Part shown: one piece after another, positions 4,308-29,819 of the stretch
Layout: every line of letters starts with the position of its first letter
How positions within the stretch are numbered: the first letter of the stretch is position 1
Source of the DNA: a virus
Direction: 5' to 3' (one strand)
DNA length: 48,850 nucleotides
IMG/VR virus record: IMGVR_UViG_3300002460_000044
Location: 1-48,850 of that record
Translations under genes and position numbers: made by a program
Notes under the pieces: model-generated
Seen by the model: only the letters and a program-made list of their open reading frames with translations
Databases searched by the model: none
Told to the model about the DNA's origin: nothing

Positions 4308-4628
4308 TTAAGCGGTTGTAGTTGTACTACTACTAGTTGATGTGGTACTAGTACTAGTAGTTGTAGTGCTTGTAGTCGTACTGGTAGAAGTAGAGGTACT
4401 AGTACTAGTAGTGGTTGTGCTAGTGGAAGTACTCGTACTTGTAGTAGAGGTCAGGTCACTACCCTTCTGACTAGTACCAAGCCTCTTGCTTATCCCGCCA
4501 ATAATAGTATTAAATGTTGCATTTAAGGTATGCGTAAATTCATTTTTTCTCTGCTGGAAGGTACTAACTTTTCTATTCGTACCTCCCGACATGTCTTCGA
4601 TAGAGTATTCCTGTTCGTTGTCTGGCAT
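4308..4628 (-). CDS. Small structural protein with C-terminal Ser/Thr tract (mucin-like tail)
   Basis: 106 aa. A 59-aa unique N-terminal region is followed by a 46-residue pure S/T tract (4314..4451) and a terminal Ala. Tightly packed between structural genes. Confidence 0.6.
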   Translation of the reverse strand: MPDNEQEYSIEDMSGGTNRKVSTFQQRKNEFTHTLNATFNTIIGGISKRLGTSQKGSDLTSTTSTSTSTSTTTTSTSTSTSTSTTTSTTTTSTSTTSTSSSTTTTA

Positions 4629-5947: not shown

Positions 5948-8785
5948 TTACCCTAGCTTGCTATCAATGTCCAGTTCTTGGCTTTCAGTATCAATAATCA
6001 TATCTCCACCCCTGTCTACCTGAAGATTAAGTTCCTCTTTTTCCTCTTCACCTGAAATAACTAAATCTGTATCTACTACATCTATCACATAAGGAAATGT
6101 GGTGGTAGTACTGGTGCTAGTGGTCGTGGACGTTGAGGTGCTGGTTGAGGTAGATGCCAATGTAGTAGTTGTACTGCTACTTGTTGAAGTTGTACTAGTA
6201 CTGGTACTTGTGGTGCTACTGGTACTGGTAGTAGTAGTACTCGTGGAGGTAGTAGTCGACGTGGAACTACTAATAGTTGTGGTTGAGGTTGATGTAGATG
6301 TGGTGGTTGAAGTTGAACTGCTGGTCGTTGTTGAACTGGTGCTGCTAGATGTTGTCGTACTAGTACTCGAGCTAGTAGTAGAAGTTGACGTACTCGAAGA
6401 GGTAGTTGTGGTAGAGGTGGATGTAGAGGTTGATGTCGAGCTACTTGTAGACGTTGTACTCGTGCTCGTAGTTATTGAAGTCGATGTAGAACTACTAGTC
6501 GTAGTCGTAGAAGTACTAGTTTCTGTAGTTGTGGTCGAGGTGCTACTGGAAGTAGATGTTGTTGTAGTACTACTTGATGTACTAGAAGAGGTTGTTGTAG
6601 TAGAAGTACTTGAGCTTGTCGTGGTAGAAGTACTTGAACTTGTAGTCGTAGTACTTGTACTCGTAGATGTCGTGGTGGAAGTAGAGCTGCTAGTTGTGGT
6701 AGTACTGGTGGAAGTTGAGCTTGTTGTTGAGGTAGAAGAAGAAGTAGTCGTTGTACTTGTGGAAGTGGAACTCGAAGTCGTGGTGGTTGACGTTGATGTC
6801 GACGTACTAGTACTACTAGACGTAGTTGTAGTAGAAGTAGAAGATGATGTTGTGGTTGTGGATGTTGTAGTTCCTGCTGCTGTATAAGTAGCATAGATGG
6901 AGTATTTATTAGTACTGTGAGTTGGAACTAATGGATCAGGAAAATTAAAACTTCCAATGCCTTGCTCGTGTCCTTGGTTTGTATCCCCCGTATCATAATA
7001 CATATCCCAAACATCTTTTGGCAGAATATCACTCATCGCCATAAGAACATAATCCGTGCTCGCAGAGAGCGATTCTGAAGACATTGTTGCTGTTCTCCAA
7101 GCCGCAGTTGTATCAACTACATCCGTAGCAGCAGATGTCCCAATTAATGATAAATCGCTATGAAGATAAATTGCCGTCTTAAACTCATCACCCGCACTAT
7201 AGGCAGAAGCTTTACCATAAACAGTTATGCTATCTAATGTTCCTGCCCCAGCCCCCATTGTAAACACAGAACCCCTACTTTGATGATTTCCAGCATTAGC
7301 AACTGTTGCTCCTATTGTTGTATACCCAAATGTAGGGTCAATAATAATGGGATAAACTTCGTTATCTAAAAAACTTTGAGGAATTTCAATTGTCAATATC
7401 TTTTTATTAACATCAATATCTAATTTTCCCCACACCCAATTTCCATCAGCATCAATAATTTTAGGTCTGTAAATATGAAAGGCTTTACCTGCTCGATAAT
7501 TTTTACCTTCCAAGTTAGAGTAATCCCCAGATTTTCTTTTATGATAAACAGCGTAAGAACCTACTACATCTATAGGTCTAAAGGAATGATTATTTCGTTC
7601 TTGGGGCGTAAGAGCTGGTTGATAATAAAAGTTTAATTCTTTAGTTTCTATCGAAAATAATAATTGATTGGAAACAGGTTTATTTTTTAATTCAATCTCA
7701 AACTCATAACCATCTCCTCTTTCAACTTGATAGCTATTATCATAACTAGCATCTTCTATCCAACTACGCTGACCGAAAATAGATGAACAATTAGTTACTA
7801 TTTCTTGTTCTTCGGGGGTAAAATCTCCATTGGTCAATGTCAATCCTATGTTTTCGGCTATCTTATTTACAACCTCATCCCCTATAGCAATAGTTAATTC
7901 GGGATTTATTTCATTTAAGTTTCCAATACTTTCAATAACATTGGTTTTGTCTGGAATTACTTTATAAGCATCTTTTACATATGACGGGTCAGTTCCTACG
8001 TTAATAAAAAATAAGATTGTATTTCCTTCTCTCAATATCCCACAGAATTTCTTGTCAGTTCCATTTTTGAAATATAAATCATTTCCTCTTTTCACCACCG
8101 AAATTCCTTTTGAGGAAAGAACGCTTTGAACTGAATCCAACAAAACCGAATCGTCTATTATAATGTGATTGGGAGTATAAATACGGATATGAACTGTCTT
8201 TTGATCGGAATAAATAACCCCAGACTCACTTTGGGTAGGATTCCTCACGATTCTTACATCCGATGGTATCTTATTAGTATTTAAGTATTTATCAGTAGTA
8301 TAAAAACCGTGAAAATGTAAAAGTTTGTCTTTCTGAGTATAAGAAATAAATACTGGAGCGTTGAACCGCATCCGCTTAAAAAGCTCTACAAAAGCAGGAC
8401 CAGTAGGGGGCTCTATATTATTCAAACTTATATGCCGAGGTAAAGTAGACGTGGAAATTGGAAGTTCTGGATTACTTCTACTATAGAAACGAGCTTTGGT
8501 CTCTTCGCCTTGCCAAACTATCTTATCGGCTTGGGTGGAGACTGTCGGAGTTAGTTCATCGGTAATTAGTCTGGCGGAAAAATTGACTTCATTTGTTTCG
8601 TCTTTATTTCCCCATCTACAGACTTTTATTTGTGGAAGAAACTCACCTGCAACTTTGCTATCTCCTACTTCTACTTCAATTAAATCTTTTATGCTATCTT
8701 TAGGGGTAGCAAAAAAGGTATTATCTTTTACAAGATATTTCTGTGCGACTTCATCACTAATATTATTTATTTTAATTACTGGCAT
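5948..8785 (-). CDS. Large fibre/appendage protein: about 640-aa globular N-terminal region, 258-aa Ser/Thr stalk, 49-aa acidic C-terminal domain
   Basis: The track ORF 5948..8824 starts at a TTG. In-frame ATG 8785 is preceded by SD GGAGGAAGGG, so I prefer it. The S/T tract spans 6098..6871. The tract is followed by the motif TTFPYVIDV. Confidence 0.7.
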   Translation of the reverse strand: MPVIKINNISDEVAQKYLVKDNTFFATPKDSIKDLIEVEVGDSKVAGEFLPQIKVCRWGNKDETNEVNFSARLITDELTPTVSTQADKIVWQGEETKARFYSRSNPELPISTSTLPRHISLNNIEPPTGPAFVELFKRMRFNAPVFISYTQKDKLLHFHGFYTTDKYLNTNKIPSDVRIVRNPTQSESGVIYSDQKTVHIRIYTPNHIIIDDSVLLDSVQSVLSSKGISVVKRGNDLYFKNGTDKKFCGILREGNTILFFINVGTDPSYVKDAYKVIPDKTNVIESIGNLNEINPELTIAIGDEVVNKIAENIGLTLTNGDFTPEEQEIVTNCSSIFGQRSWIEDASYDNSYQVERGDGYEFEIELKNKPVSNQLLFSIETKELNFYYQPALTPQERNNHSFRPIDVVGSYAVYHKRKSGDYSNLEGKNYRAGKAFHIYRPKIIDADGNWVWGKLDIDVNKKILTIEIPQSFLDNEVYPIIIDPTFGYTTIGATVANAGNHQSRGSVFTMGAGAGTLDSITVYGKASAYSAGDEFKTAIYLHSDLSLIGTSAATDVVDTTAAWRTATMSSESLSASTDYVLMAMSDILPKDVWDMYYDTGDTNQGHEQGIGSFNFPDPLVPTHSTNKYSIYATYTAAGTTTSTTTTSSSTSTTTTSSSTSTSTSTSTTTTSSSTSTSTTTTSSSTSTTSSTSTSTTTTSSSTSTTTSTSTSTTTTSSSTSTTTSSSTSTTTTSSSTSSSTTTTSTSSSTSTTTTETSTSTTTTSSSTSTSITTSTSTTSTSSSTSTSTSTSTTTTSSSTSTSTTSSSTSTTTSSSTSSTTTSSSTSTTTSTSTSTTTISSSTSTTTSTSTTTTSTSSTTSTSTSTTSTSSSTTTTLASTSTSTSTSTTTSTSTTTTFPYVIDVVDTDLVISGEEEKEELNLQVDRGGDMIIDTESQELDIDSKLG
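6098..6871 (-). repeat. Ser/Thr-coding low-complexity tract (258 codons) inside 5948..8785
   Basis: Translation is S/T only apart from single E, I, I, L and A residues. Plus-strand triplets are restricted to NGT / NGA / RCT. The repeat is degenerate at DNA level. Confidence 0.9.
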
Positions 8786-8824: not shown

Positions 8825-11800
8825 TTATACCCCGATTGCTATTCCAAAGTCATAACCCCTTTCCACATTTATCGGATAAGGCACTGTTGTAGTAGTGCTA
8901 GAGCTAGTACTTGTGGTAGTGGTGGAAGTACTGGTTGAAGTACTCGTGGTTGTGGTTGTCGTCGAGGTAGAAGTCGTGCTGCTTGTACTCGAGCTAGTAC
9001 TGGTAGTGGTTGTACTAGTAGAGGTTGTACTACTTGTACTCGTGCTGGTTGAAGTGGAGGTAGTTGAACTGCTAGAAGAGGTGGTTGTAGTAGAAGTACT
9101 ACTGCTAGTACTAGTCGAACTAGATGTGGTGGTTGTACTGGTAGATGTACTACTCGATGTAGAAGTGCTGGTAGATGTCGTTGTTGTACTTGAACTAGTA
9201 CTGGTAGAACTTGTCGTGCTAGTAGAAGTACTGGTAGTGGTTGTACTACTACTCGTTGTCGTAGTTGAGGTGGACGTACTAGTGCTAGTACTACTTGATG
9301 TAGAGGTCGTTGTAGTCGAAGTCGATGAAGATGTTGTAGTGGTGCTAGTTGAGGTAGTGCTACTAGTGCTGGAACTAGTTGTGGTCGTAGTCGTCGAGGT
9401 TGAGGTAGTCGTCGTAGAAGAACTGGTACTAGTAGAACTAGTAGTACTCGTACTCGTGGTAGTGGTTGAAGTACTAGTGCTGGTAGTTGTACTCGTACTG
9501 GTAGATGTCTCTGTCGTAGTAGTTGATGTAGATGTAGTACTGGATGTACTAGAGCTGGTTGTAGTTGTACTGGTAGACGTGGAAGAACTAGTTGTAGTTG
9601 TGCTAGTCGAAGTGGATGTTGTACTAGACGTTGACGAGCTTGTAGTGGTGGTGGAAGTTGAAGATGACGTGCTAGTAGTAGTGCTGGTTGAGGAACTGGT
9701 CGTTGTCGTTGAAGTACTGGTAGACGAAGTTGTAGACGTGCTAGAGCTAGTGGTCGTTGTGCTAGTAGAACTGCTTGTCGTAGTCGTTGAAGTACTACTG
9801 CTAGTTGAGGTGCTACTACTAGTAGAAGTAGTGGTCGTACTAGTGCTGGTACTTGATGAAGTACTGGTACTGGTACTACTTGAGGTGGTTGTTGTCGAAG
9901 TACTCGAGCTTGTCGTGGTAGAAGTAGAACTACTCGTTGTGGTAGTCGAGGTACTGGAAGAAGTAGTTGTTGTAGACGTTGATGTGCTACTAGTCGTACT
10001 CGTACTCGAGGATGTCGTGGTTGTACTAGTGGACGTAGAGGTACTACTTGTCGTTGAAGTAGACGAACTAGTAGTTGTAGTGCTTGAGCTGGTACTCGTT
10101 GTCGTACTTGTTGAAGATGATATTGTAGTAGTACTAGTAGAAGTAGAACTGCTTGTAGTAGTCGTACTCGTACTAGTCGAAGATGAGGTTGTAGTTGTAG
10201 ATGTACTGCTACTGGTTGTTGTAGTAGAAGTTGTTGTACTCGAAGAAGTTGTGGTCGTAGACGTACTACTGGAAGTCGTAGTTGAGGTGCTACTACTTGT
10301 AGTGGTGGTAGAAGTAGAGGTGGAAGTAGTGCTACTAGTAGATGAACTTGTAGTAGTCGTCGATGTAGAACTACTAGTCGTGGTGCTAGTAGAGCTACTT
10401 GTAGTCGTAGTAGATGTACTAGAGGAAGTAGTCGTTGTCGAGCTAGATGTAGATGTACTTGTGCTACTGCTGGTGGTGGTTGTAGATGTACTACTTGAAG
10501 TAGTAGTCGTAGAACTGCTAGTACTGCTAGTTGTACTAGTGGAAGACGAGGTAGTGGTGGTACTAGATGAAGTACTCGAACTCGTCGTTGTAGAAGAAGA
10601 ACTTGAGGTTGTCGTGGTGCTAGTAGAAGTACTACTCGTAGTAGAAGTACTTGATGACGTTGTTGTAGTCGACGTTGACGAACTGGTAGTCGTGGTAGAC
10701 GTACTAGTACTACTCGTAGTTGATGTGGAAGAACTAGTTGTAGTCGTTGAGGTGCTTGTACTAGTAGAACTAGTAGTACTAGTAGAAGAACTCGTGGTCG
10801 TAGTGCTTGTACTGGTACTACTGCTGGTAGTTGTTGAGGTGCTGCTTGACGTGGTAGTGCTCGATGTCGAACTAGAAGTTGTCGTACTTGTACTGGAACT
10901 TGTTGTAGTTGTAGAAGTGCTAGAACTCGTTGTTGTGGTTGATGTAGAAGTAGAAGTTTGAGTTGTAGTAGTACTGGTACTGGTACTACTAGAAGTTGTG
11001 GTTGTTGAACTACTAGTTGTTGTTGTCGATGTACTACTACTCGTAGTGGTGGTAGAAGTAGAGGTACTTGAACTAGTAGTTGTAGTTGACGTTGATGATG
11101 ATGTTGTTGTAGTACTCGTGCTAGTTGATGAAGAGGTGGTCGTCGTCGAAGTACTGCTACTAGTGGTAGTTGTGCTTGTAGAAGAACTGGTTGAACTACT
11201 GGTGCTTGACGATGTTGTTGTCGTACTGGTTGAGCTAGAGGTGCTACTCGTCGTCGAGGTGGAGCTACTTGTAGTTGTAGTGCTAGTACTCGTAGATGTG
11301 GTGGTAGAAGTAGAGCTGCTAGTCGTGGTTGTAGAGGTACTAGAAGAGGTTGTTGTTGTCGAAGTAGAAGTCGAAGAACTAGTAGATGTAGAACTACTAG
11401 TGGTACTGGTGCTTGTACTCGTGCTACTGGTGGTTGAAGTAGAAGAACTAGTTGTCGTAGTACTAGAACTTGTCGTTGAGGTAGAGGTGGACGAGCTAGT
11501 TGTAGTAGTAGAGGTACTCGTCGAACTAGATGTAGTAGTGGTAGACGTACTGGTGGTTGTAGTCGACGTTGACGAGGAAGTACTGGTTGACGTAGTGGTG
11601 GTACTCGTACTACTCGAGGTTGTCGTAGTGGACGTACTTGTGGATGTAGAAGTACTGCTACTGGTAGTTGTCGTGCTTGTTGAACTCGAGGTCGTTGTTG
11701 TTGAACTACTTGAACTGGTACTTGTAGAAGTCGAACTCGAAGTAGTCGTAGTACTTGTGCTAGTACTAGATGTGGTGGATGTACTTGACGACGTGGTTGT

Positions 11801-12193
11801 TGTACTCGTTGATGTACTAGTAGTGGTGGTGGAAGTACTGGTGCTGGTTGTCGTAGACGTAGATGAACTTGTAGTGGTTGTACTAGTACTTGTACTACTA
11901 CTAGTCGAAGTAGAAGACGACGTAGTAGTAGTAGAGGTAGAAGTAGAGGTGCTAGTAGTTGTAGAAGTACTACTAGTAGTGGTGGTTGTTGATGAACTGG
12001 TACTAGTACTGCTAGTCGTACTAGTAGAAGTACTGGTTGTTGTAGTACTAGTCGAGGATGAAGTTGTAGTCGAACTACTGGTGGTGGTGGTTGAAGATGA
12101 GGTGGTAGTGGAGGTAGTGGTTCCTTCCGCTTGCAGCGTAATAGGAAATTCTAGTATTAATACTTTGCCATACGAACGGAGAAATCGAGCCAT
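8825..12193 (-). CDS. Giant mucin-like Ser/Thr protein (1122 aa) with short unique N- and C-termini
   Basis: A single 3.37-kb frame is open. N-terminus is MARFLRSYGKVLILEFPITLQAEG (24 aa) and C-terminus is VPYPINVERGYDFGIAIGV (19 aa). The 1079 residues between are S/T with only three interruptions (Q, I, E). It starts 19 nt after the upstream stop, and its stop abuts the next ORF. Confidence 0.7.
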   Translation of the reverse strand: MARFLRSYGKVLILEFPITLQAEGTTTSTTTSSSTTTTSSSTTTSSSTSTTTTSTSTSTTSSTSTSSSTTTTTSSTSTTTSTSTSTSTTTTSSSTSTSSSTSTSTTTTSSSTSTTTSTSTSTTTTSTSTSTTTTSSSTSTTSSTSTSTTTTSSSTSTSTSSSSSTTTTSSSTSTTTTSSSTSTSTSTSTTTTSSSTSTTTTSTSTSSSTSTTTTSTSTTTTSSSTSTSTTTTSSSTSTSTTSSSTTTTSSSTSTTSSTSTSTSTTSSSTSTSSSTSTSTTTTSSSTSTTTTSSSTSTTTSTSTSTTTTSSSTSTTSSTSSSTSTTTTSSSTSSSTSSSTSTTTTSSSTSTTTTSSSTSTSTTTTSSSTSTTTTSSSTSTSTTTTSSSTSTTTTSSSTTTTSSSTSTSTTTTQTSTSTSTTTTSSSTSTTTTSSSTSTTTSSSTSSTTTSSSTSTTTSSSTSTSTTTTSSSTSTTSSTSTSTSTTTTSSSTSTTSSTSTSTTTTSSSTSTTTTSSSTSTTSSTSTSTTTTSSSSSTTTSSSTSSSTTTTSSSTSTTSSTSSSTTTTSSSTSTTTTSSSTSTSTSSSTTTTSSSTSTTTTSSSTSTTTSSSTSTTTTSSSTSSTTSTSTSTTTTSSSTSTTTSSSTSTTTTSSSTTTSTTTTSSSTSTTTTSSSTSTSTTTTSSSTSTSTTTISSSTSTTTSTSSSTTTTSSSTSTTSSTSTSTSTTTTSSSTSTTSSTSTSTTTTSSSTSTTTTSSSTSTTTSSSTSTTTTSSSTSTSTSSSTSTSTTTTSTSSSTSTSSSTSTTTTSSSTSTTTTSSSTSTTSSTSTSTTTTSSSTSTTTSTSSSTSTTTTSSSTSSTTSTSTSTTTTSSSTSTSTTTTSSSTSSTTSTSTTTTETSTSTSTTTSTSTSTTTTSTSTTSSTSTSSSTTTTSTSTTTTTTSSSTSSTTSTSTTTTSSSTSTTTTSTSSSTSTSTSTSTTTTSSSTTTTSTSTSTTSSTSTSSSTTTTSTSTSTSSSTSTSTTTTSSSTSTSSSTSTTTTSSSSSTTSTSTSTSTSSTTSTSTTTTSTSSSTSSTTSTSTTTTTTSTSTSTSTTTTSTSSSTTTTVPYPINVERGYDFGIAIGV
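8885..12121 (-). repeat. Ser/Thr-coding tract (1079 codons); recurring degenerate unit about TTTTSSSTST
   Basis: Protein-level repeat using all 6 Ser and all 4 Thr codons (verified in sampled stretches). I saw no long exact DNA repeat by eye. Confidence 0.9.
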
Positions 12194-12211
12194 ACCTTAA
12201 TTATACTGTAC

Positions 12212-13890: not shown

Positions 13891-13994
13891 AGGTCATCTA
13901 GATTACCCACAATTGCATTTAAAAAGACGTTTAATCAGCAAGAATGGATAAATTAAAGCTAAAGAGAGAATATATTTAATGTTTCGTAACATAT

Positions 13995-15011: not shown

Positions 15012-15926
15012 TTAGAGGGGTTCTATGTGGATTTCTTCTATTCTTTTATATGGTTTTCTAATTCCATCTTGACTCTGGTAAAACCCCCAAGGGTCAACAC
15101 CGTGTCCTTCATTCAAAGTTTCAGGCCAAAGATCACTTAAATTATTCCATCGTTTATCTTCATCGAATAAATTTAATTCCTTCGGTAAACTAGAAGCCTC
15201 ATCTTTACTCTTACCCCAATGGTGCCATACCCAACTTCTCATACTAGAAACCAATCGGTAACCCAATCGGTAGGCTCGGGCATTAAGGTCGTAGTCTTCT
15301 CCCCCACCAGGGTAAAACTTCTCGTCGAAGTAACCAACCCTGTCAAAAAATTCACGACGAAAGACAGGAAACCACATTGCAATAGCATCGATAACTCCTC
15401 GTTTGACAAGCGGGAAAGCCTCTGGTATATCGCTAACTCGTTCTTTGAGGTCTTCATAATTCCCTGCACAGAGATAATTCCAATCTTCTTCTGTGTAAGT
15501 TTCCTTATATTCTATTATATCAATATACTCACCATGATCTCTACCATAGCCCCACAGTGGTACTCGAGGGCTCTCAGGACATACTGCGAGTATTTTCTCA
15601 TCGGTAGCAAATTCATCAAGTATCCCTTGGAACCAAGAAGGGTGCATTGCTTCCGTATCGTCGTTAAGAATACCTATGTAAGGAATATTATTTCTATAAG
15701 CGATTGAAGCCATTTCGTTAGCTGCTTTCGCAAACCCCAGGTTTCTATAACTTCTAATCCATAGATGGGTAAGTTTATGATATTTAGTGTACGCCTCATC
15801 ATCTACTGTTTGGTCTAATACAAATATTCGCATCTTTTCGTTATCCGTATACTTTAAAAAGGTTTCTAAACATCTACCAATGTAATCACTTCTGACTATA
15901 GGAATACAGATAGCTAATTCTGGCAT
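15012..15926 (-). CDS. Family-2-like (GT-A) glycosyltransferase
   Basis: 304 aa. LAICIPIVRSDYIGRCLETF..MRIFVLDQT, NLGFAKAANE and ILNDDTEA (DxD-type) motifs. SD GAGGAG lies 5 nt before the ATG. Confidence 0.65.
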   Translation of the reverse strand: MPELAICIPIVRSDYIGRCLETFLKYTDNEKMRIFVLDQTVDDEAYTKYHKLTHLWIRSYRNLGFAKAANEMASIAYRNNIPYIGILNDDTEAMHPSWFQGILDEFATDEKILAVCPESPRVPLWGYGRDHGEYIDIIEYKETYTEEDWNYLCAGNYEDLKERVSDIPEAFPLVKRGVIDAIAMWFPVFRREFFDRVGYFDEKFYPGGGEDYDLNARAYRLGYRLVSSMRSWVWHHWGKSKDEASSLPKELNLFDEDKRWNNLSDLWPETLNEGHGVDPWGFYQSQDGIRKPYKRIEEIHIEPL

Positions 15927-16564
15927 TTTAGCTCCTCATCTGTTAATTCTGAAATGAATTTAAAAGTGGTATCCCCATCCCAAGGAAATGGATCCCATTC
16001 TTCTTCCATCTGCCTCATACCATTCCTGCCTTTAGAATCGGCTACGTTTATATCTTCTACGTGTCCATGAACCATTAAGGGATTACAAGTACAGTATGAA
16101 AGTAACCCTTCAGGTCGCTTTTCTCGATTGTAATGCTGATCCGCCACTTTGTATTCTCTTTCCATGAGAACCTGATATACCAACTGAGGGGAAGAATTGA
16201 CTGGTTTGGTTGAATCGGGAGTTTCATTATAAGGCTGGGGAAAAGTGATTTGCCAGCCTGGAGCCTTAAAAATTTTAGAGAAGCCCATATTTTCTGCTCT
16301 CTGGAGAAAAATATTAGCTGTATTAGTATCCCACTTGAGAACCTCGAAGTTATCATCGTGCCTCCATCCATGAACTAAAAGATCCACCCAATCCCTGTAT
16401 GGATTAAGTAGTTTAATAAAATCCGCCGTCATTCGGCCAGGGATAGCGAACATATTTACTTTAAATTTAGGGTACTTTGATTTCCAATACAATAGAAAGT
16501 TCATTCCGTTCCTATCATATTTATTTTCGAAATCGTCAAAGTCCAAGCAAATTGTCGAACTCAT
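15914..16564 (-). CDS. NodB/CE4-like polysaccharide deacetylase-like protein
   Basis: 216 aa. CLDFDDF resembles the TFDDG motif and LLVHGWRHDD resembles H(S/T)xxH. FKVNMFAIPG is also present. Motif-level call only. Confidence 0.4.
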   Translation of the reverse strand: MSSTICLDFDDFENKYDRNGMNFLLYWKSKYPKFKVNMFAIPGRMTADFIKLLNPYRDWVDLLVHGWRHDDNFEVLKWDTNTANIFLQRAENMGFSKIFKAPGWQITFPQPYNETPDSTKPVNSSPQLVYQVLMEREYKVADQHYNREKRPEGLLSYCTCNPLMVHGHVEDINVADSKGRNGMRQMEEEWDPFPWDGDTTFKFISELTDEELKCQN

Positions 16565-17498
16565 TCATCATCCTTTCCAAGGAATACTTATCCTCGATAT
16601 ATTTTCTAAGTTTTTTAGGTTCTTCTTTCGGTAACTTTATCATTTCTACCGCTTCTTGGTGGGTCTGATATAAATATTCATGAGACCATATATTCCTGCT
16701 ACCATAAAAATCATTTACTACTGGGGTAATTCCTTTTGCCATAGCTTCTCCTACAGCATAGCAAAAACTCTCTTTCATTCCTGGATGTAATAATATGTCT
16801 ATATTCTCATACCACTGGTTCATATCGTCTTGAGACGGGTACAGCGTAACTACTTTCCCCAATCCTCTACTCTCAATATAATGATTGTACATCACTCCCC
16901 AGTAAGGGGTACCACCTTCGTGCTGGCCTCTTATGTGTAGCCTCCACTTTGGATTTTCTTTATATAAAGTATTGAATATATCCAAACCTCCCATGTGGTT
17001 CTTCGGCATCCACATATCACCAAGCACCATACCTAGTTGATAACCGTCAGTTTTCTTTTTCTTTAAGGTAAACTTCTCTAAGTTCACAGATGGCCTTATT
17101 AACTTTAATTTACCTTTCCAGGTAGGAGCCTTCTCCAATATATATTTCTCAATGTGCGGTGCTATACAGATTCCTTGATCAATAAAATCTATGTAATGTT
17201 GTTCGTAGAAGGGTACGTAAGCGTTCCAGACATCCCAATCGATCATCCTGCAAACTATCTTTGGCTTCTTGTTATTATTCCAATCGGGGGTACGACTAAC
17301 CCCTTCTACTCCGTTATATAATTTCCACAAGTAGTTTATATTCCCCTCAAGCCACTCCACGTAATATATATCCGCCCATTGAGCCAGATACTCACTAGCC
17401 CCACGTTCGTATTTAACCTCATGACCTTTTTTATCCCAATGGTCAATAATATCCTGACAAAATTTCTTACCAGTATTGTCCGCTACAGCAATTTTCAT
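16536..17498 (-). CDS. GT-B fold (GT4-like) glycosyltransferase
   Basis: The track ORF starts at TTG 17522. I prefer ATG 17498, which overlaps the upstream stop as ATGA. An EX7E motif ESFCYAVGE is followed by AMAKGITPVV. Confidence 0.6.
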   Translation of the reverse strand: MKIAVADNTGKKFCQDIIDHWDKKGHEVKYERGASEYLAQWADIYYVEWLEGNINYLWKLYNGVEGVSRTPDWNNNKKPKIVCRMIDWDVWNAYVPFYEQHYIDFIDQGICIAPHIEKYILEKAPTWKGKLKLIRPSVNLEKFTLKKKKTDGYQLGMVLGDMWMPKNHMGGLDIFNTLYKENPKWRLHIRGQHEGGTPYWGVMYNHYIESRGLGKVVTLYPSQDDMNQWYENIDILLHPGMKESFCYAVGEAMAKGITPVVNDFYGSRNIWSHEYLYQTHQEAVEMIKLPKEEPKKLRKYIEDKYSLERMMNEFDNLLGL

Positions 17499-18196
17499 TT
17501 TCTTTTTAAAACTATTATCCAATCATGTCCTTTAACTTCTTTACCAATTCCTTCTGCAAGCTCTAATAATTTCCATTCAGAATTAGTATCTAAATATTTT
17601 AGAACCTTTTTTCTTGAATATGAATTAGTATATTCATTGGAATAGAGCTTTTCTTCTGGTGTACCTCTATGATCTATTATATTTTTAATCTCATGCTCTT
17701 CCGACTCAATAAATGGAACCCATCCGACCACGATAACCAGCTTCTTAGCTACTCGACAATGCTCATCCATCGCCTCCTCAAAGCTGTTCATATGGTCAAC
17801 TACGTGGCGAGAATATACTACATCCCAGCTTTTATCTGGTTGGTCTATTTTGTGGATTGAAGGATTGTAATCAAAAAACATATTCCCAAATTTTCCTTTA
17901 CACCATTCAGTATTTTTGGGAATTACATCTAAGCCCAGATAGAAAAATCCAGGTTTTCCAAACCAATCAATTTCCTTATCATCTCGTAATGCTTCAAAGG
18001 TGGTTCCAGAACCTGCTCCATAATCTAAGAAAGTATCATTTTTTACATACTTTTTGATTGCATAGAGTTGGGAAGGATGGTTTGGGCCGTTTCCTCCTCC
18101 CCTACAAAGAGTAGGTACATCCGGGGTATTAAACCATAGCTTTTCTGGATTTACTTTTGACACTGGCCTTAGATAATTTACGGGATTTTGTTCCAT
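17495..18196 (-). CDS. Class I SAM-dependent methyltransferase
   Basis: Motif I is FLDYGAGSGTT. The track start 18271 overlaps the upstream gene by 94 nt. Internal ATG 18196 has SD AAAGGA and reduces the overlap to 19 nt. Confidence 0.6.
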   Translation of the reverse strand: MEQNPVNYLRPVSKVNPEKLWFNTPDVPTLCRGGGNGPNHPSQLYAIKKYVKNDTFLDYGAGSGTTFEALRDDKEIDWFGKPGFFYLGLDVIPKNTEWCKGKFGNMFFDYNPSIHKIDQPDKSWDVVYSRHVVDHMNSFEEAMDEHCRVAKKLVIVVGWVPFIESEEHEIKNIIDHRGTPEEKLYSNEYTNSYSRKKVLKYLDTNSEWKLLELAEGIGKEVKGHDWIIVLKRK

Positions 18197-19140
18197 TCTT
18201 TTCCTTTCGCTAAGTAATTTTCTATTAGTTCTCCTAATTGGGCCATACGACAAGCAGATGTAAACTCCCAATGCTCACTTTCACACTCTTGGTCAGGTAT
18301 ATCTTTTAACATTTCTATAGCTTGTTTTGGTGTACTAAAAAACCCTACTGCTGGGCAAGTTAGCATCAGTTCCATCCCAGGGGCATATTGCTGACACAAC
18401 TTTCCACCGGCCCGTAGTACTTTACCTACCCGATTACTCCAATAACCCCAACAATTAGGATTGACACTAAATCCTAGTACTACCTTACTTCTAGCTATTA
18501 ACGCATTATATGCAGCACCATAAACAGCAGGGACAGCTTCAAAACCTTCTTTTATCCATTCTTCATAATTCCACGAGAATATTTTTACAGGTATTTCCTT
18601 GTTAATCTCTGTCAGAAAAGGCACTCTATCTCCCTGCTTTAAATAACTTCCAGTAAACACCACGTCATATTCTTTTGGTGACCCTCTAAAGGTAGGTAAA
18701 TCCCCATCACACACATCCATCTGAAAGTAACAAGGTTTTATTCCTTGTTTTACGTATTCAGGGAAAAGTCCTCCTTCTCCTGATAAATATAAATCAGCTG
18801 CTCTAGCCATTCCCAAATGCCAATCTGGAAAGCCTTGATCCCACATGTAATCCCATACCCAATATAGGACGGGGGCTCCACTTAGTTTCCTTAACTTCTC
18901 AGTGAAACTCCCATCGTAGAAGTGGTGCCATTTACAAATAATGTTTATATCAGCCTTTAAATCTTCTGGCACATCATACTTACCTTTAGGAAATCCCTCG
19001 ATAACATACTCCCGCCAAGCATCTCTGGGTATTCTATGAACTGTGTTACCTAGCCTCTCCAATTCTCTAGCTAAATGAACTTCGTCTGCTTCTTCACCTA
19101 CGTAGCCTTTTTGGTAATTGCCAATGAAATTTATTATCAT
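18178..19140 (-). CDS. CgeB-like / GT-B-like glycosyltransferase candidate
   Basis: 320 aa. DVVFTGSYLKQGDRVPFL and WSNRVGKVLRAGGKL resemble the CgeB/Glyco_trans_1_2 pattern. ATGA overlap with the upstream stop. Weakest of the GT calls. Confidence 0.4.
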   Translation of the reverse strand: MIINFIGNYQKGYVGEEADEVHLARELERLGNTVHRIPRDAWREYVIEGFPKGKYDVPEDLKADINIICKWHHFYDGSFTEKLRKLSGAPVLYWVWDYMWDQGFPDWHLGMARAADLYLSGEGGLFPEYVKQGIKPCYFQMDVCDGDLPTFRGSPKEYDVVFTGSYLKQGDRVPFLTEINKEIPVKIFSWNYEEWIKEGFEAVPAVYGAAYNALIARSKVVLGFSVNPNCWGYWSNRVGKVLRAGGKLCQQYAPGMELMLTCPAVGFFSTPKQAIEMLKDIPDQECESEHWEFTSACRMAQLGELIENYLAKGKEWNKIP

Positions 19141-19646
19141 AATTCCACCTTACTCATACTAGTATTTTTATCTATTCGTTTAAATAACTCCCACTTATTT
19201 ACTTTGTGGGTATTTACAAACTCGGCTACAGCTTGGACTACTCCAGGACTAGATTCATCACAATCGTGGAAGAGCATTACTCCGTCTTCTTTCATGTAGG
19301 GATACCACGATTTAATATCTGTCTTGCACCCCTCGTATGAATGATCCCCATCTATAAACAAAACAGCTATTTTCCCATTTGCCCAAGTTTTAGCAATCTC
19401 CTCACTTTTTCCTTGCTTAAATACCGTTCCTTCAATAAATACTGGGTCTTTAATATCTATACCAACTACAGAAACACCTGTCTTTGCCGCTTGACTAGCA
19501 ACCCACAAACTCCTACCCTTATCCACCCCAATTTCTACATAACTGTCCCCTGCATTTAATTTCTCTATCTCTGGTATCAATATCTCAGCATCAAAGGTGC
19601 TAAATGCCCCTTGTGGTGCTTCTTTGTCTAGTCTTTCGAGATCCAT
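19137..19646 (-). CDS. Class I SAM-dependent methyltransferase (Methyltransf_24 / CmcI-like)
   Basis: 169 aa. YVEIGVDKGRSLWV (motif I), VVGIDI, and LFIDGDHSYEGC, which is typical of this family. Confidence 0.6.
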   Translation of the reverse strand: MDLERLDKEAPQGAFSTFDAEILIPEIEKLNAGDSYVEIGVDKGRSLWVASQAAKTGVSVVGIDIKDPVFIEGTVFKQGKSEEIAKTWANGKIAVLFIDGDHSYEGCKTDIKSWYPYMKEDGVMLFHDCDESSPGVVQAVAEFVNTHKVNKWELFKRIDKNTSMSKVEL

Positions 19647-20118
19647 AGTTTCTTTCCCAATTCCTTTCTGCGTTTATTCTCGCTTGTACAGCCAAATCAT
19701 AATCTTTAAAACAACCAGCCCATTTTGCTATTCTATTCCTCTTTAAGGAAACAAACCAGTATTTTCCTTTATATAAAGTTACTCCTGGTATTCCACTAGT
19801 ATTATTACTTTGTAGTCCTTTATTTAATACATTTTCACTTCTTGTAACAACTCTCAAATTTTTTCTTCTGTTATCTAATTTATTTCTATTTTTATGGTCA
19901 GTCTCAACTTTAATTAAAATTCCTCTTGGATTTCCTAAGATAATCCTGTGCATATAGATTTTCCTATTCTTACCATTAACCCACTGATTTCTATGAGCAT
20001 AACCATTAGATCTATCAAAACACCATTTCCACTGGTTTAGCCAATTAAAGTCTTCATCGTCAACTAAAGCATATCTGCCTTGTGTTAATTTAATTTTTTT
20101 TACTGTATTTGCCTTCAT
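19600..20118 (-). CDS. HNH-AP2 homing endonuclease inserted in the glycosylation island
   Basis: From internal ATG 20118: MKANTVKKIKLTQGRYALVDDEDFNWLNQWKW..GYA...MHRIILG..VETDHKNRNKLDNRRKNLRVVT (HNH_3), then SGIPGVTL..KYWFV...WAGCF.DYDLAV.AR (AP2 domain). It overlaps the upstream GT by 29 nt and the downstream methyltransferase by 47 nt. Confidence 0.8.
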   Translation of the reverse strand: MKANTVKKIKLTQGRYALVDDEDFNWLNQWKWCFDRSNGYAHRNQWVNGKNRKIYMHRIILGNPRGILIKVETDHKNRNKLDNRRKNLRVVTRSENVLNKGLQSNNTSGIPGVTLYKGKYWFVSLKRNRIAKWAGCFKDYDLAVQARINAERNWERNYGSRKTRQRSTTRGI

Positions 20119-20899
20119 AATCAGGCGTAAATACCCTTTCTGGAGACTTTGGTATATCAAATGTAGCCTCCCATATTCCATCATCAGTTCTATTAAATCC
20201 CCATTTTTCTCGGAAGTAGGCGTAGTTTCGGAATCTATATGAATCATTTTCTGGTAGGAAAGTGCCTGAAGTTTGGGAGAAGTGATAGACGATACAATTA
20301 GTATTCTGGTATGGCTGTACTCCTGCAAGTTTAATTTTATATTCTAAATCCGAATCTCCGTTCGATCCAAAAGGATCGAAGTTAATATCATATCCTCCAA
20401 TTAAATCCCACAAATCTCTTCTTATAAGAAAAGGTAGATTAAATCCTGTTCTAATTCCTTGTCCTTCATATTCTTCTGCAAACTTATTCCATTTTTTTTC
20501 ATTAAAATCGTTTATACCCCCACAATCAAAAACTTCAAATGTTGGTGCTCCTGAATTCGGTTCTACAAGTTTCGGCGAAATACACAACATCTCTTCGGAT
20601 AATCCAGCCAATAAGTTTTCTAGCCACCTTTCTGGATATACCATGTCATCATTTGTAACTAATATCCAGGGATGATTTGTAGTTTGGGCAGCTGCATTTA
20701 CCGCAATACATTGTCCTTGTTGATTGATTTTTATATCACCATTTATAACATTATAAATACCATTTACTACTACACTTATACTAAGTGGTGTTCTTATAGT
20801 TGTTTCGGTTAAAGATCGATAGCAACGGCTTAAAACTGGCTTAGTCTTTTGTGTAGCCAAAGTAGGGATGATAACTAAAATATCGTTAGGTAATATCAT
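20090..20899 (-). CDS. GT-A fold glycosyltransferase
   Basis: ILVIIPTLATQ... and VTNDDMVY (DxD-type). I prefer ATG 20899 (SD GGAGAAG 7 nt upstream) over track start 20935. Confidence 0.55.
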   Translation of the reverse strand: MILPNDILVIIPTLATQKTKPVLSRCYRSLTETTIRTPLSISVVVNGIYNVINGDIKINQQGQCIAVNAAAQTTNHPWILVTNDDMVYPERWLENLLAGLSEEMLCISPKLVEPNSGAPTFEVFDCGGINDFNEKKWNKFAEEYEGQGIRTGFNLPFLIRRDLWDLIGGYDINFDPFGSNGDSDLEYKIKLAGVQPYQNTNCIVYHFSQTSGTFLPENDSYRFRNYAYFREKWGFNRTDDGIWEATFDIPKSPERVFTPDYEGKYSKKN

Positions 20900-22004
20900 T
20901 ATTAAACTTCTCCATACTGCTAATAATATAATCAAGATCAGATTTTTTTAGCCCCTGATGACACCCAAATAATAATCCATGTCTATTCACCCGCAGGGCT
21001 TCTGGATAATTCCGGTTATTTACCGTAATATATGGCTGATTTATTAAGGGCATTATAGTTCTGGTAGTAATCCCTTTTTTCTCTAAATACAAGATAAGTT
21101 CATTTCTCCTAAGATGAAAGAAAGGAAACATCATAAAGGCGTGATTATCTAAGTAGCTGTCTGGGTGGTGGTTACCCAGTTTTTTTGATAAGTACCTAGC
21201 GTTTTCTTGCCTCTTACTTAACATATTCTGCCAATTTTCCAGTTCTACCAACCCCAAGGCAGCTTCCATCTCCGTACTCCTACTTGAATAACCTGGATAA
21301 TTAAATCTAAATCTTGCTTCAATTACTTCTGGATTGTACTTATCATCGTCATCTATTTTCATATATTTGTTGTCCCTACCGTGAAAGACTAGACTACGGA
21401 TAAGATCAGCTAGTTTTTGGTCATTGGTACAAGCCGTACCGCCTACACCAGTAACAAGAAGGTGAGCAATGTAAAACGAAAAACAGGTTACATCTCCAAT
21501 TCCAACTCCATCTACAAACATAGTTTCGCAAGAATCCTCAATGACCTTTAATTTATACTTCCTGGCAATTGCCATAATTTCTTTCATTTTAGCTGGCTTA
21601 CCTAGTAGGTGGACTGGCATAATTGCACGAGTTTTTGGTGTAATTGCAGCCCCGATTAAATCTGGATTTAGATTAATATCCTTACCTATATCAACTACTA
21701 CTGGTGTCAGATTATTATGTACAACCACGTTGTAGGTCGCTACAAAAGTCACAGAAGGTATGATAATCTCATCCCCGTCTTTCCACTTACCTAGTATCTT
21801 CAAAGCGTGTATGGATGCTTGAAGGGCCGAAGTACCACTATTTGTGAACACCCCATATTGGTTATTGTGAAGTTTGGAGAATTTATCCTCAAACTCGGCT
21901 GTCATCGGGCCATAGGAAAGTCGGTTGCTTTTCAAAGCTTCAACTACTTTATCTATATGTTTCTGGCTCACGTGGATCGTGCCTACATCTATCGTTTTCT
22001 GCAT
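20886..22004 (-). CDS. DegT/DnrJ/EryC1-fold sugar aminotransferase/dehydratase with His at the PLP-lysine position (ColD/E1-like?)
   Basis: 372 aa. FTNSGTSALQASIHAL is present. In FSFYIAHLLVTGVGG, H aligns with the K of the canonical SFHxxK motif. Confidence 0.7.
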   Translation of the reverse strand: MQKTIDVGTIHVSQKHIDKVVEALKSNRLSYGPMTAEFEDKFSKLHNNQYGVFTNSGTSALQASIHALKILGKWKDGDEIIIPSVTFVATYNVVVHNNLTPVVVDIGKDINLNPDLIGAAITPKTRAIMPVHLLGKPAKMKEIMAIARKYKLKVIEDSCETMFVDGVGIGDVTCFSFYIAHLLVTGVGGTACTNDQKLADLIRSLVFHGRDNKYMKIDDDDKYNPEVIEARFRFNYPGYSSRSTEMEAALGLVELENWQNMLSKRQENARYLSKKLGNHHPDSYLDNHAFMMFPFFHLRRNELILYLEKKGITTRTIMPLINQPYITVNNRNYPEALRVNRHGLLFGCHQGLKKSDLDYIISSMEKFNNDIT

Positions 22005-22651
22005 ATAAACATAAAATTATAATGGCTAGAATCGGAATTTAACTGCTCCCCCTCGGCTGTTTCTTGTATAGTTAACTCCGCTTCTTCAAAGGCTTCTTCC
22101 AATGCTTGCTTAGAATATTCTTGCAGGTGGGTATCCTCCCAGGGTTCCTCTTCTTCTTTTTTACCCATCATATTTCGATCGTTTAGATTTGTTCCTTCAT
22201 TCACAAAAGAACGCCACAGAATAATAATTACATACTTTCTAGCTACTTTAGCCATTTCTTTTATGGCTGATTTATAGTCATCGAGATGATCTAAGGTGTG
22301 CATACAAACCACAGCATCCCAAGAGTTGTTTGGTTCTTTTAGTTTTCTGGCATCCTGTATCTCGAAACTTCCTTCTGGAAATGTATCTTTAGCTATGGCC
22401 ACCATCGCCCAAGAATAATCTATACCCTTGTATTCAAATCCATAATCTTTATTCAATTCATATAATGGGCCTGTACCACAACCAACGTCAAGAAAGCCCT
22501 CAATTCCTAACTCTTTCATCTTGTCCAATAAATAAATTCGGTGCTTCTGTGACCCCATCTGGTAGGTTGATTTAAAGGAATCCCAGTAAGTTCTTTCAGT
22601 TTGTCCGTTGTGCATCTTCCTCCATTTTACGATCATATTCTTCTGGGTCAT
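21989..22651 (-). CDS. Class I SAM-dependent methyltransferase
   Basis: Motif I FLDVGCGTGPL, and VVCMHTLDHL. Start ambiguous: ATG at 22651, 22636, or 22615 (the last with SD GGAGGAAG). Confidence 0.65.
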   Translation of the reverse strand: MTQKNMIVKWRKMHNGQTERTYWDSFKSTYQMGSQKHRIYLLDKMKELGIEGFLDVGCGTGPLYELNKDYGFEYKGIDYSWAMVAIAKDTFPEGSFEIQDARKLKEPNNSWDAVVCMHTLDHLDDYKSAIKEMAKVARKYVIIILWRSFVNEGTNLNDRNMMGKKEEEEPWEDTHLQEYSKQALEEAFEEAELTIQETAEGEQLNSDSSHYNFMFICRKR

Positions 22652-23255
22652 TGTCTAAAAGCTGCAAATTAGTACCAGCCATAATATGAGTTATAATGGT
22701 CTTGTTAGTATCAGTCCACTTACCTAACCGCTTATACAAATCTTGCTCTGCTAACAAGGAAAGATTCTCATTCCACCTGCCTATTTCTTCAAAATGCTTC
22801 TTTGTAATCATCATTAGTCCAGCATCTCTACCACCCCTCATACTCTCTTGATCAAATGAATCTCTATTATAAGTGGCCTTCACGTATTCTCTGCTTCTTG
22901 GGACTTGATCTGGAAATACTGCGTCATAACCTTGTTCAATATATTGCCTAAGACCTGGCAACCATCCTTCGTGAACAAAAACATCGTTTTGAATAAATAC
23001 TAGGTACTCACCTCTAGCAACTTGTGCTCCTAGATTCATGCAAACGGTGTAGCCTGGATCATTGGGTAAATTAAAGTATTTATCCACTTTCAATACGTTG
23101 TAATCATCTCTTATTGGAAATTTAGGTACTGGATTCATCACAATCAGTTCGTAGTCTTCTGGATCAGTAAACTTGGTTATATTGGCAATACAAGCCATCG
23201 ACATGTGAGCGTTAAATCTGGAGTTGTTAAAACAGGTCAAAATTATACTCGTCAT
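22596..23255 (-). CDS. GT-A fold glycosyltransferase
   Basis: 219 aa. MTSIILTCFNN..., DPGYTVCMNLGAQVARGEYLVFIQNDVFV. ATGA overlap with the upstream stop. Confidence 0.55.
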   Translation of the reverse strand: MTSIILTCFNNSRFNAHMSMACIANITKFTDPEDYELIVMNPVPKFPIRDDYNVLKVDKYFNLPNDPGYTVCMNLGAQVARGEYLVFIQNDVFVHEGWLPGLRQYIEQGYDAVFPDQVPRSREYVKATYNRDSFDQESMRGGRDAGLMMITKKHFEEIGRWNENLSLLAEQDLYKRLGKWTDTNKTIITHIMAGTNLQLLDNDPEEYDRKMEEDAQRTN

Positions 23256-24133
23256 AGATTTGCCTTTATATCCCTTTCTAAACTGGTAAGCAAGGGTCGC
23301 CTATAAATACTTTTTAGTACCTGAATATCAGCTATGGCACTTTTCACCCCAAAGTCAGTATTCTGATAAACTACCTCGATATTTTTCTTTCGACTGGCCT
23401 TTTTGAATATCTCGGCTAGTTTGTTCATTGAGGTTCCTAACCCACTACCAACATTGATAAATTTACCCTCAAAATCTGGGTTCTTAATCGCTTCGAGAAT
23501 GATCTGGACTATATCCACTATACTGACAAAATCCCTAACTTGCGTACCATCCCCGTGAATTACCAATTTCTTGTCCTGCACCCCATTTAAGAACCTATTT
23601 ATCACACTGTCATCCTGCGGGGTCGGGTTAAAACCATAGATATTAAAAAATCTAAATACAACAATCGGAAGTCTATATCTTAAAGCCGCACACAAGTACT
23701 CACATTCTATCTTGCTTTGCCCATAAGGGTTATTTACTTCCAACTCGTCTGTTTCTCTTATCGCTGTCCTCCCAACAATTTTATATACAGAAGCCGAAGA
23801 AGGAAATATAAACTTGGCTTTGTTTTGCTCGGCTGCCAATAATGCTCTAAGAGTACCTTTGGTGTTCAAGGCTAAAGTAAACTCTGGGTCTTTTATTGCT
23901 TGGCTAACCGAAACTTGAGCCGCTAAGTGGATAATTACGTCAGCATCTTTGGTTTCTTCCATAAAATCCGGACTGAATATATCTTTTCCGTCACGTATAT
24001 CCCAACCAACAGCGTTTGGTAAGGCCCGCATTAGATGAGTACCAATGAAACCACGACTGCCTGTTACGACAATTTTCTTTTGTTTGGTTAGTTTTTTTAG
24101 CATTTCATTTAGGGAGCCAAGTTTCGTTGTCAT
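23252..24133 (-). CDS. NAD-dependent nucleotide-sugar epimerase/dehydratase (extended SDR)
   Basis: 293 aa. Rossmann motif VVTGSRGFIGTHL, SSASVY, and catalytic YGQSK (YxxxK). Confidence 0.75.
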   Translation of the reverse strand: MTTKLGSLNEMLKKLTKQKKIVVTGSRGFIGTHLMRALPNAVGWDIRDGKDIFSPDFMEETKDADVIIHLAAQVSVSQAIKDPEFTLALNTKGTLRALLAAEQNKAKFIFPSSASVYKIVGRTAIRETDELEVNNPYGQSKIECEYLCAALRYRLPIVVFRFFNIYGFNPTPQDDSVINRFLNGVQDKKLVIHGDGTQVRDFVSIVDIVQIILEAIKNPDFEGKFINVGSGLGTSMNKLAEIFKKASRKKNIEVVYQNTDFGVKSAIADIQVLKSIYRRPLLTSLERDIKANL

Positions 24134-24809
24134 ACGCCTCCATCTGGTCGAACTGCCCTACATAATCTTTTAATTCAGCATTGTGTTTTTGCATCTCTGG
24201 TGTAAACGATTCGGGATAACCCCAATTAGTCTTTCCAAAAGGATGATAAGCTCTAAGCTTAGTGGTTCTACCCGTTTTCCAGCCATTACCTTGTAACCTG
24301 CTGCAAATCCATCTTTCTTCGTTATTTCTGCCACTACTTATTTTATGTTCCCAACCGTTTACTTTTCTTACTGCCTCTGTCCTCATTATTCTCATTACCG
24401 CCCCGCACATATTTACTTCCTTCACATCTTCTGGGTCTTTTGGGTCAAAACCAACCGCCCCAATAAGAATGTGAGGATGTAAAGAAATTGCTCCGTAAGT
24501 TGGTCTTTCATCCATAAACTTAACCATTTGTGAAAGCCAATCTGGCTCTGTCTGCGGTACATAAATATCATTATCACTCGTAATAAAATATTCGCTTTCA
24601 GATAGAGCCAAGGCAATATTCCACGCTCCGTGTATCCCAATATTTTCCGATAAACCAACATACAAATCCACTTCATCCTTAAATTCCTCATTTCCGCCGT
24701 TATCAATAATTGTTAGCCTATACGGGGTCTTAGTACGCTCTTTCAGATACTTAATTGTATTTGCAGTGAAATGCTGTCTTAGAAACGTGGTGAGAAATAT
24801 ATCTATCAC
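24105..24809 (-). CDS. GT-A fold glycosyltransferase
   Basis: 234 aa. RLTIIDNGGNEE, NIGIHGAWNIAL, ITSDNDIYV. The GTG start overlaps the upstream stop as GTGA. Confidence 0.55.
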   Translation of the reverse strand: MIDIFLTTFLRQHFTANTIKYLKERTKTPYRLTIIDNGGNEEFKDEVDLYVGLSENIGIHGAWNIALALSESEYFITSDNDIYVPQTEPDWLSQMVKFMDERPTYGAISLHPHILIGAVGFDPKDPEDVKEVNMCGAVMRIMRTEAVRKVNGWEHKISSGRNNEERWICSRLQGNGWKTGRTTKLRAYHPFGKTNWGYPESFTPEMQKHNAELKDYVGQFDQMEAYDNETWLPK

Positions 24810-29535: not shown

Positions 29536-29537
29536 AA

Positions 29538-29810: not shown

Positions 29811-29819
29811 AATTCATCC

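Follow-up and report, generated by a model that had tools for sequence, protein, structure and literature searches.

How two neighbouring genes come to share rare protein strings whilst differing in the codons that specify them is the question raised by a 48,850-bp stretch of DNA (IMG/VR record IMGVR_UViG_3300002460_000044; hereafter the window), which is the whole contig of a podophage-like virus. The two genes, P0001 (5948..8824) and P0002 (8825..12193), are both on the minus strand and each contains a long tract of serine and threonine, for which the original prediction had proposed either an old duplication or convergence. We consider it probable that a cassette was duplicated long ago to give the two stalks as paralogs, and that their likeness stems from one selected protein grammar, with no recent copying of DNA. 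P0001, whose ORF (open reading frame) opens at TTG 8824 with ATG 8785 as the likely true start, is a stalk gene with a globular head: a 651-aa N-region is followed by a 258-aa Ser/Thr tract (6098..6871; aa 652–909; 141 T, 112 S and five other residues) and a 49-aa acidic C-terminal module (C-module; 5951..6097) that begins with FPYVIDV right after TTTT and ends in ...DIDSKLG. P0002 is a stalk-only protein of 1122 aa, comprising a 24-aa N-peptide, a 1079-aa tract (8885..12121; aa 25–1103; 576 T and 500 S, plus Q, I and E) and a 19-aa C-module, VPYPINVERGYDFGIAIGV (8828..8884), immediately after TTTT. Serine and threonine make up 98–99.7 % of the two tracts, which have only eight interruptions in 1337 residues: E768, I784, I851 and L889-A890 in P0001, and Q412 (CAA), I691 (ATA) and E895 (GAG) in P0002.

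Both odd strings are indeed present in both tracts. The first, STTTTETSTST (the E string), is found at 6506..6538 in P0001, with GAA as its E codon, and at 9494..9526 in P0002, both on the minus strand. The second (the I string), STSTTTISSSTSTTTSTS, occurs at 6239-6292 and 10088-10141, and the exact match around its isoleucine, which is encoded by ATT at I851, extends to 20 residues, eight to the left and 11 to the right (6239..6298 and 10088..10147, minus strand). The codons decoded in the original prediction are as it gave them, with the coordinates in the second gene off by 3 nt; none of the 14 codons it listed, nor any of 18, is identical in the I string, as opposed to two of 11 in the E string, and several TCN<->AGY serine switches separate the shared strings. 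Within P0002, the Q412 codon (10958..10960, minus strand) lies in an 8+9 residue context that is the same as that of E895. Both tracts finish in TTTT, followed by FPYVIDV in P0001 or VPYPINV in P0002, so that the related closing motif reads TTTT-[FV]PY.I[DN]V.

When interruptions were placed at random within the tracts, the shared contexts were recovered with P=0.005–0.009 for I, 0.03 for E (0.004 in the reciprocal test) and 0.0065 for the Q/E pair inside P0002; the joint random-placement probability is about 3e-4. The sharing therefore exceeds random placement, but under a TTTT-x-T rule the E string would turn up about one time in two: of the 17 TTTT-x-T sites in P0002, eight (47 %) fit the P0001 E context no less well than the real one. 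The I string amounts to the commonest 20-residue word of the grammar with its fourth T changed to I; five more copies of that word, with T in place of I, are found in P0002. The I string is seen in the window genome only, which leaves a P of about 0.01–0.02, and is either a coincidence at the 1–2 % level or a faint trace of old copying.

That every codon differs is simply what saturation gives, and carries no extra signal. Under independence, the probability of finding no identical codon is 0.016 over 14 codons and 0.0056 over 18; likewise, no codon is identical in 31 (3 %) of the 1013 14-residue peptide pairs shared between the tracts. Across all 1013, codon identity is 0.244, compared with 0.22 (Ser) to 0.27 (Thr) expected under independence, in line with the synonymous saturation that had been predicted. 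Codon usage in the tracts equals that of the rest of the genome, identical codons at lags 1–3 are neither avoided nor favoured, and k-mer sharing within and between the P0001 and P0002 tracts equals that of synonymous shuffles. Selection against DNA repeats was considered and rejected, as there is no avoidance of identical neighbouring codons and no k-mer depletion. When the six tracts of the window were pooled, shared 12-mers showed no excess over synonymous shuffles; for longer words, however, we counted 257 of 15 nt (177 in shuffles; P=0.002), 68 of 18 nt (30; P=0.005) and 15 of 21 nt (5.4; P=0.04), an excess that fits occasional short-patch copying.

The protein sequence behaves quite differently from the codons. 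Test cases are provided by three tandem, capsid-adjacent paralogs (a to c; 29263..30146, minus strand), each with an N-domain of ~50 aa and a Ser/Thr tail of 39–55 aa, for which orthologs exist in relatives L023–L034 at capsid identities of 94–61 % (L-numbers denote loci of relatives on viral and metagenome contigs). Tract length is kept in these orthologs, and in ungapped comparisons anchored at the C-terminus (b-b and c-c pairs) 87 % of S/T positions are retained (minimum 77 %, n=30), compared with 60 % (maximum 69 %) in non-orthologs; N-domains of the same genes are only 35–75 % identical. As an example, the tract of paralog b is identical to that of L023 at 39 of 39 residues with 11 identical codons, and includes five TCN<->AGY switches. 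As ortholog tracts keep 87 % of S/T positions, purifying selection appears to act on the order of S and T and not on composition alone, and to conserve that order more strongly than it does the adjoining folded domains. The claim that selection acts on amino-acid composition and not on a DNA repeat thus holds in that constraint is at the protein level and no DNA repeat is kept, but falls short in that order is selected too.

Synonymous sites in the tracts also seem to change unusually fast. A small virion-block gene with a 46-aa Ser/Thr tail (4308..4628, minus strand) has an ortholog in L005, and in this pair 15 of 45 S/T codon pairs are identical in the tract, compared with 120 of 174 in flanking genes; for Thr codons alone the figures are 6 of 29, compared with 233 of 357 flanking 4-fold codons (P=3.6e-6). 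The same holds for the window versus L023 (15 of 50 Thr codons; 81 of 116 flanking 4-fold codons; P=2.6e-6), for L025 versus L027 (71 and 96 %; P=1.8e-5) and for L025 versus L028 (38 and 67 %; P=6.2e-5). As a gene-internal control, third-position identity in the tract was compared with that in the N-domain of the same gene, giving 51 and 75 % for the window versus L023 (P=0.001), 36 and 82 % versus L005 (P=2e-4), 73 and 89 % for L025 versus L027 (P=0.08), 46 and 58 % for L025 versus L028 (P=0.2), and 53 % (203/381) and 73 % (138/189) when pooled (P=5e-6). Single substitutions at scattered third positions account for the changes in the closest pair. Other long-tract pairs (L120/L149, L008/L081, L096/L087 and others) were set aside, their flanks being too diverged to serve as controls. 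Because tract third positions, on these comparisons, diverge about twice as fast as those in the N-domains of the same genes, saturated codons are not a clock: they can neither date the duplication nor imply great age, and "every codon differs" is not readable as age in such tracts.

What is selected can be described as a grammar. Within the window, T runs are capped at four with few exceptions and S runs at three, the distance between TTTT starts is 9, 17, 19 or 11 residues, there are autocorrelation maxima at lags of 9, 17 and 26, and conditional entropy drops to about 0.5 bit per residue. A set of 49 non-redundant tracts from the window and its relatives (7680 aa) holds 1450, 133, 226, 441 and 27 T runs of length 1, 2, 3, 4 and 5, and 1694, 53, 463 and 23 S runs of length 1, 2, 3 and 5, but no S run of length 4 or 6. 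Of the 36 interruptions in this set, 18 directly follow TTTT, compared with a background of 6.3 % (P=8e-13), and because of this family-wide bias we regard their placement as rule-bound and not random. Eleven of the 18 are in the context TSTSTTTT-x-TSTST, where x may be L, V, I, Q, E or R, or a short insert (VPP, VPI, LPE, LEG or LA), and TTTT-x sites are found in at least eight contigs (the window, in both genes, L008, L147, L091, L047, L084, L096 and L141). The shared E string is one instance of this family-wide site, TTTT-x-TSTST. In the P0002 ortholog of L008, the identical 8+8 context of the E string holds V; E codons (GAA/GAG) and V codons (GTA/GTG) differ by a single step, as do CAA (Q) and CTA (L). 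Separately, a segment of L008:7584-9191, TTTSLSTTTSTSTSTSSSTTT, is present twice in one 133-residue tract, which may represent an internal duplication, and a similar L context occurs in a gene of L006 (the b-type gene described below).

The second constant element is the C-module. By scanning viral and metagenome contigs with degenerate DNA patterns we collected at least 18 distinct C-modules (17 and a W variant), all directly after TTTT and with the consensus [FVLW]-x-Y-x-I-[DNEK]-V; an alignment search with four C-module sequences gave 76 pattern matches, none of which was confirmed by tblastn, for which the query is short and of low complexity. Conservation of the post-tract motif in homologs, one of the checks put forward for these genes, is seen in at least 15 other contigs that carry homologous stalk genes. 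One of these, L006, was found via its adaptor gene and carries the same gene pair as the window, with ends that read TTTT-VPYPIDVERG... and TTTT-FNYPIEVEKGYDF...ESKLG, the latter resembling the ...DIDSKLG end of P0001. In the window, L006 and L008, whose adaptors are 66–71 % identical, the upstream giant gene always ends in the VPYPI (a-type) module and the downstream gene in the F/L-x-Y (b-type) module. As the module types sort by gene in all three genomes, the duplication of stalk plus C-module appears to predate the divergence of these phages, so that the proposed old duplication finds support for the cassette but not for the shared interruptions. The ortholog of P0002 in L008 (2756-7576; 1606 aa) has a tract of 1565 residues and retains both N-peptide and C-module.

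The cassette is syntenic in these three genomes, upstream of the SU10-type adaptor gene, whilst the heads of the downstream genes differ: the window has the P0001 head, L006 one of 431 aa, and L008 heads of 535 and 437 aa. Three unrelated heads at a syntenic position, together with the recurring module, mean that the cassette is portable and that the C-module is its constant part. In L006:3411-4475, the ortholog of the small gene at 4308-4628, the S/T tract is an internal linker followed by TTTT-FVTSIQV and a C-terminal domain of ~190 residues; the hydrophobic motif after TTTT may therefore be the first strand of whichever domain follows the stalk. Among other variants of the locus, the closest capsid relative (L020, also L081 and L117; contig IMGVR_UViG_3300025159_000321 / Ga0209002_10000125; 94 % aa identity) retains of the giant stalk gene only a tract of ~46 residues and the C-module (L020:330-620, minus strand), joined to a truncated homolog of window 13995-14501. 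Either a large deletion took place here or the assembly is chimeric. In L008, the gene at 2103-2735, immediately upstream of the giant stalk gene, codes for a protein with a CBM96 carbohydrate-binding module.

Taken together, we propose that a clade of uncultured podophage-like viruses fuses a stalk plus C-module cassette to unrelated heads, with P0002 as an almost headless version. The grammar would consist of T runs of mostly one or four and S runs of one, three or five, with rare non-S/T residues mainly at TTTT-x-TSTST, and codons would differ since synonymous sites are saturated, having changed faster than flanking sequence. Enzymes of a neighbouring glycosylation island would O-glycosylate the tracts in the cytoplasm, yielding extended, mucin-like spacers on the virion; the C-module would probably dock or assemble the stalk, and the variable heads would bind something. 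As the P0001 head family looks N-anchored in other phages, this bears on which end of the stalk faces the virion.

An alternative, which we regard as unlikely although it has some merit, is that the interruptions are inherited relics, i.e. that an ancestral segment with E and I was duplicated into both genes and kept by selection whilst synonymous sites became saturated. It would account for the same two residues being found in the same contexts in both genes at the random-placement probabilities given above, and accords with homologous C-modules, with E and Q codons (GAA, GAG and CAA) that are one step apart, and with the small excess of shared 15–21-nt words among the six tracts. The order of the two is, however, reversed, with E preceding I in P0001 and following it in P0002. 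Interruptions of the L008 ortholog of P0002 comprise I, V and L, with E and Q both absent and the I in a different context, and neither the a-type gene of L006 nor the b-type gene of L047, the closest relative, has the interruptions seen in the window; conservation of the interruptions in homologs, which the original prediction had made a test, is thus not seen. Moreover, the E context is a recurrent family site, matched by 47 % of those in P0002, and gapped collinearity of the tracts does not exceed z=2. As the order is reversed, orthologs lack them and the E site recurs, the shared interruptions appear not to be inherited relics. Recent gene conversion or duplication between the neighbouring genes is scarcely credible. 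Although they are adjacent on the same strand and share a slight excess of 15–18-mers (z about 1.7), codon identities of 0 of 18 and 2 of 11 refute it for the shared strings, the longest common DNA word is 23 nt (20.2 ± 2.2 in shuffles), and Tandem Repeats Finder (TRF) gives weak short-period arrays only. Nor is pure chance, whereby in low-entropy tracts of 258 and 1079 residues any interruption finds a matching context, anything but improbable: the 1013 shared 14-mers, the five further copies of the I context with T for I and the entropy of about 0.5 bit per residue all lend themselves to it, but the joint random-placement probability of about 3e-4 and the post-TTTT bias already disfavour it.

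It is also conceivable, if rather doubtful, that the tracts are plain hydrophilic linkers that are never glycosylated, their grammar reflecting descent from a decayed repeat of ~9, 17 or 26 residues. The autocorrelation peaks fit such a repeat, homologs of the P0001 head carry SPS repeats and other extensions without known glycosylation, and glycosylation of the tracts is itself read from sequence; on the other hand, S/T order outlasts folded domains whilst codons are saturated, unlike a decaying repeat, and the tracts co-occur perfectly with a glycosyltransferase island (9 of 9 versus 0 of 6; see below). Several observations also weigh against the old-cassette, selected-grammar interpretation that we favour. 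The same residues, E and I, occur in both genes of one genome, and E is found nowhere else in the family tract set, which hints at intragenomic copying or lineage-specific selection; gapped alignment of the P0001 and P0002 tracts against a unit-shuffled null gives a marginal z of 1.5–2.0, and so does alignment of P0002 with its own ortholog. Of the four gene-internal comparisons, two are individually not significant, the start of gene c, which lies beside tract b, is likewise more diverged, and mosaic recombination patches could account for part of the faster synonymous change. Finally, the co-occurrence counts are not phylogenetically independent, and the glycan, its location on the virion and expression are all deduced from assembled metagenomic DNA.

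The putative modifier of the tracts is a glycosylation island of ~13 kb (15012..28442, minus strand) between the capsid and tail genes, as delineated by Pfam. It contains ~10 glycosyltransferases (with GT2 and GT1 matches), four methyltransferases, a DegT-family enzyme, an NAD epimerase/dehydratase and a UDP-glucose dehydrogenase-like gene. Considering capsid relatives whose downstream sequence extends for at least 2.3 kb, we found both tracts and homologs of the first island enzymes in nine loci and neither in six, with no discordant case; both states are represented at about 45–47 % capsid identity. This represents comparative support for glycosylation and not proof. At about 0.25 nm per residue, the value for an extended mucin-like chain, the 258 residues of the P0001 tract and the 1079 of the P0002 tract would reach roughly 65 and 270 nm, respectively. 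More tentatively, the S/T order could be a template read position-specifically by the ~ten phage glycosyltransferases, with the DNA kept non-repetitive via fast synonymous turnover, a possibility that we put forward with less than even confidence. TTTT-x sites would then serve as punctuation and TTTT plus the C-module as termination, and short-patch copying among the six tracts perhaps drives the turnover. Such a system would parallel in nature the codon scrambling used in engineering repetitive proteins.

Should the tracts prove to be glycan acceptors, this ~49 kb system would place pattern and decorating enzymes side by side, in many natural variants. Conservation of S versus T by position over randomised codons would suggest that the two residues are not interchangeable for a bacterial-type O-glycosylation machinery, and two sequence signals, TTTT plus the C-module as an ending and TTTT-x as punctuation, are definite enough to be tested.

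Full-text literature searches returned no description of phage proteins of this kind; three known systems nonetheless offer likenesses. Bacterial serine-rich repeat (SRR) glycoproteins have a very long Ser-rich stalk that is glycosylated in the cytoplasm by dedicated glycosyltransferases and holds the binding region away from the anchor (PMC7948813), much as we envisage for the window stalks. They are characterized by S-[AVTE] dipeptide repeats, accessory Sec export and a cell-wall anchor (PMC7948813), whereas among the window ORFs scanned we found neither SRR-type accessory Sec genes nor a cell-wall anchor, and the tract grammar differs; the window stalk is instead a phage virion-block gene product with a T4/S3/(TS)n grammar and a distinct C-module. 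Mucin PTS (Pro/Thr/Ser) domains and the mucin-like domains of animal viruses are likewise long, S/T-rich, presumably extended and densely O-glycosylated spacers (PMC11139210). The window tracts appear to share their Ser/Thr density over a long stretch, together with co-inherited dedicated glycosyltransferases, but lack proline altogether and with it the proline-rich composition of mucins, are interrupted only eight times in 1337 residues and would be assembled in a bacterial cytoplasm; moreover, mucin variable number tandem repeats (VNTRs) are tandemly repetitive in DNA, and the window tracts are not. According to PMC12619734, which cites Freeman et al. (2023, Cell Host Microbe), mycobacteriophage virions are glycosylated, with glycans reported at the C-termini of virion subunits and, as here, phage glycosyltransferases beside structural genes. 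The window differs from the mycobacteriophage case in that its acceptors would be separate proteins with nearly pure S/T tracts of 39–1079 residues and a strict grammar, and in having a predicted island of ~13 kb with ~10 glycosyltransferases.

Neither P0001 nor P0002 has a match in Pfam or PHROGs, the P0001 head has none in a PDB sequence search, and blastn of the DNA adjoining the stalk genes against a phage collection was also negative. The P0001 N-region, however, has >500 metagenomic homologs, in which modules corresponding to aa ~20–125 and ~370–651 precede a C-terminal extension that is hypervariable (SPS repeats, LamG and others); P0102 is the only other member with an S/T tract, which is short and follows the same grammar. 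In an AlphaFold2 (AF2) model of the head (pLDDT 88, pTM 0.85), the beta-sandwich parts resemble minor tail or fibre proteins of uncultured phages. Between the modules, an insert (aa ~125–366; 7727..8452, minus strand), carried by about a fifth of head homologs, resembles the lipoate-protein ligase A / biotin protein ligase fold (Foldseek E=5e-15; TM-score 0.76–0.77 normalised to target, root mean square deviation 3.3–3.8 over ~255 columns), whilst it has no Pfam match even at E ≤ 10. The predicted presence of an enzyme-like fold in a fibre-like phage protein is thus a matter of fold similarity in a model and not of sequence-family membership. One homolog of this head, P0110, is on an 80-kb contig annotated by NCBI as a Minisyncoccales (Patescibacteria) metagenome-assembled genome, which may point to the host group.

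Elsewhere in the window, Pfam identifies a terminase, an SU10/P22-type portal and a capsid protein, and the remaining virion and tail genes include the SU10-type adaptor, a tail fibre and a beta-helix tailspike; P0001 and P0002 are situated between the glycosylation island and the adaptor gene. A three-gene cassette at 12212-14501 (minus strand; 168, 170 and 393 aa) shares 87–94 % protein identity with L002, L003 and L004, from a phage that is otherwise unrelated to the window and has no Ser/Thr tracts, and looks like a recently exchanged module. As only these three genes are held in common, L002–L004 were dropped as evidence on stalk-gene loss. HNH-type homing endonuclease genes are found in the virion/glycosylation block at positions that differ among relatives (L008:10529-11239, NUMOD3+HNH; window 19600-20328, HNH_3). 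Lastly, long ORFs run antisense to the tracts (window 8895-10961, 10998-12200 and 6099-6887, plus strand; L008:2776-7485, minus strand) and encode strings rich in V, D, E and L. We rejected these as genes, because an offset antisense frame of ACN, TCN and AGY codons reads only GTN, GAN and CTN and is therefore stop-free by construction; as a result, gene callers may take the wrong strand and overlook S/T stalk genes.

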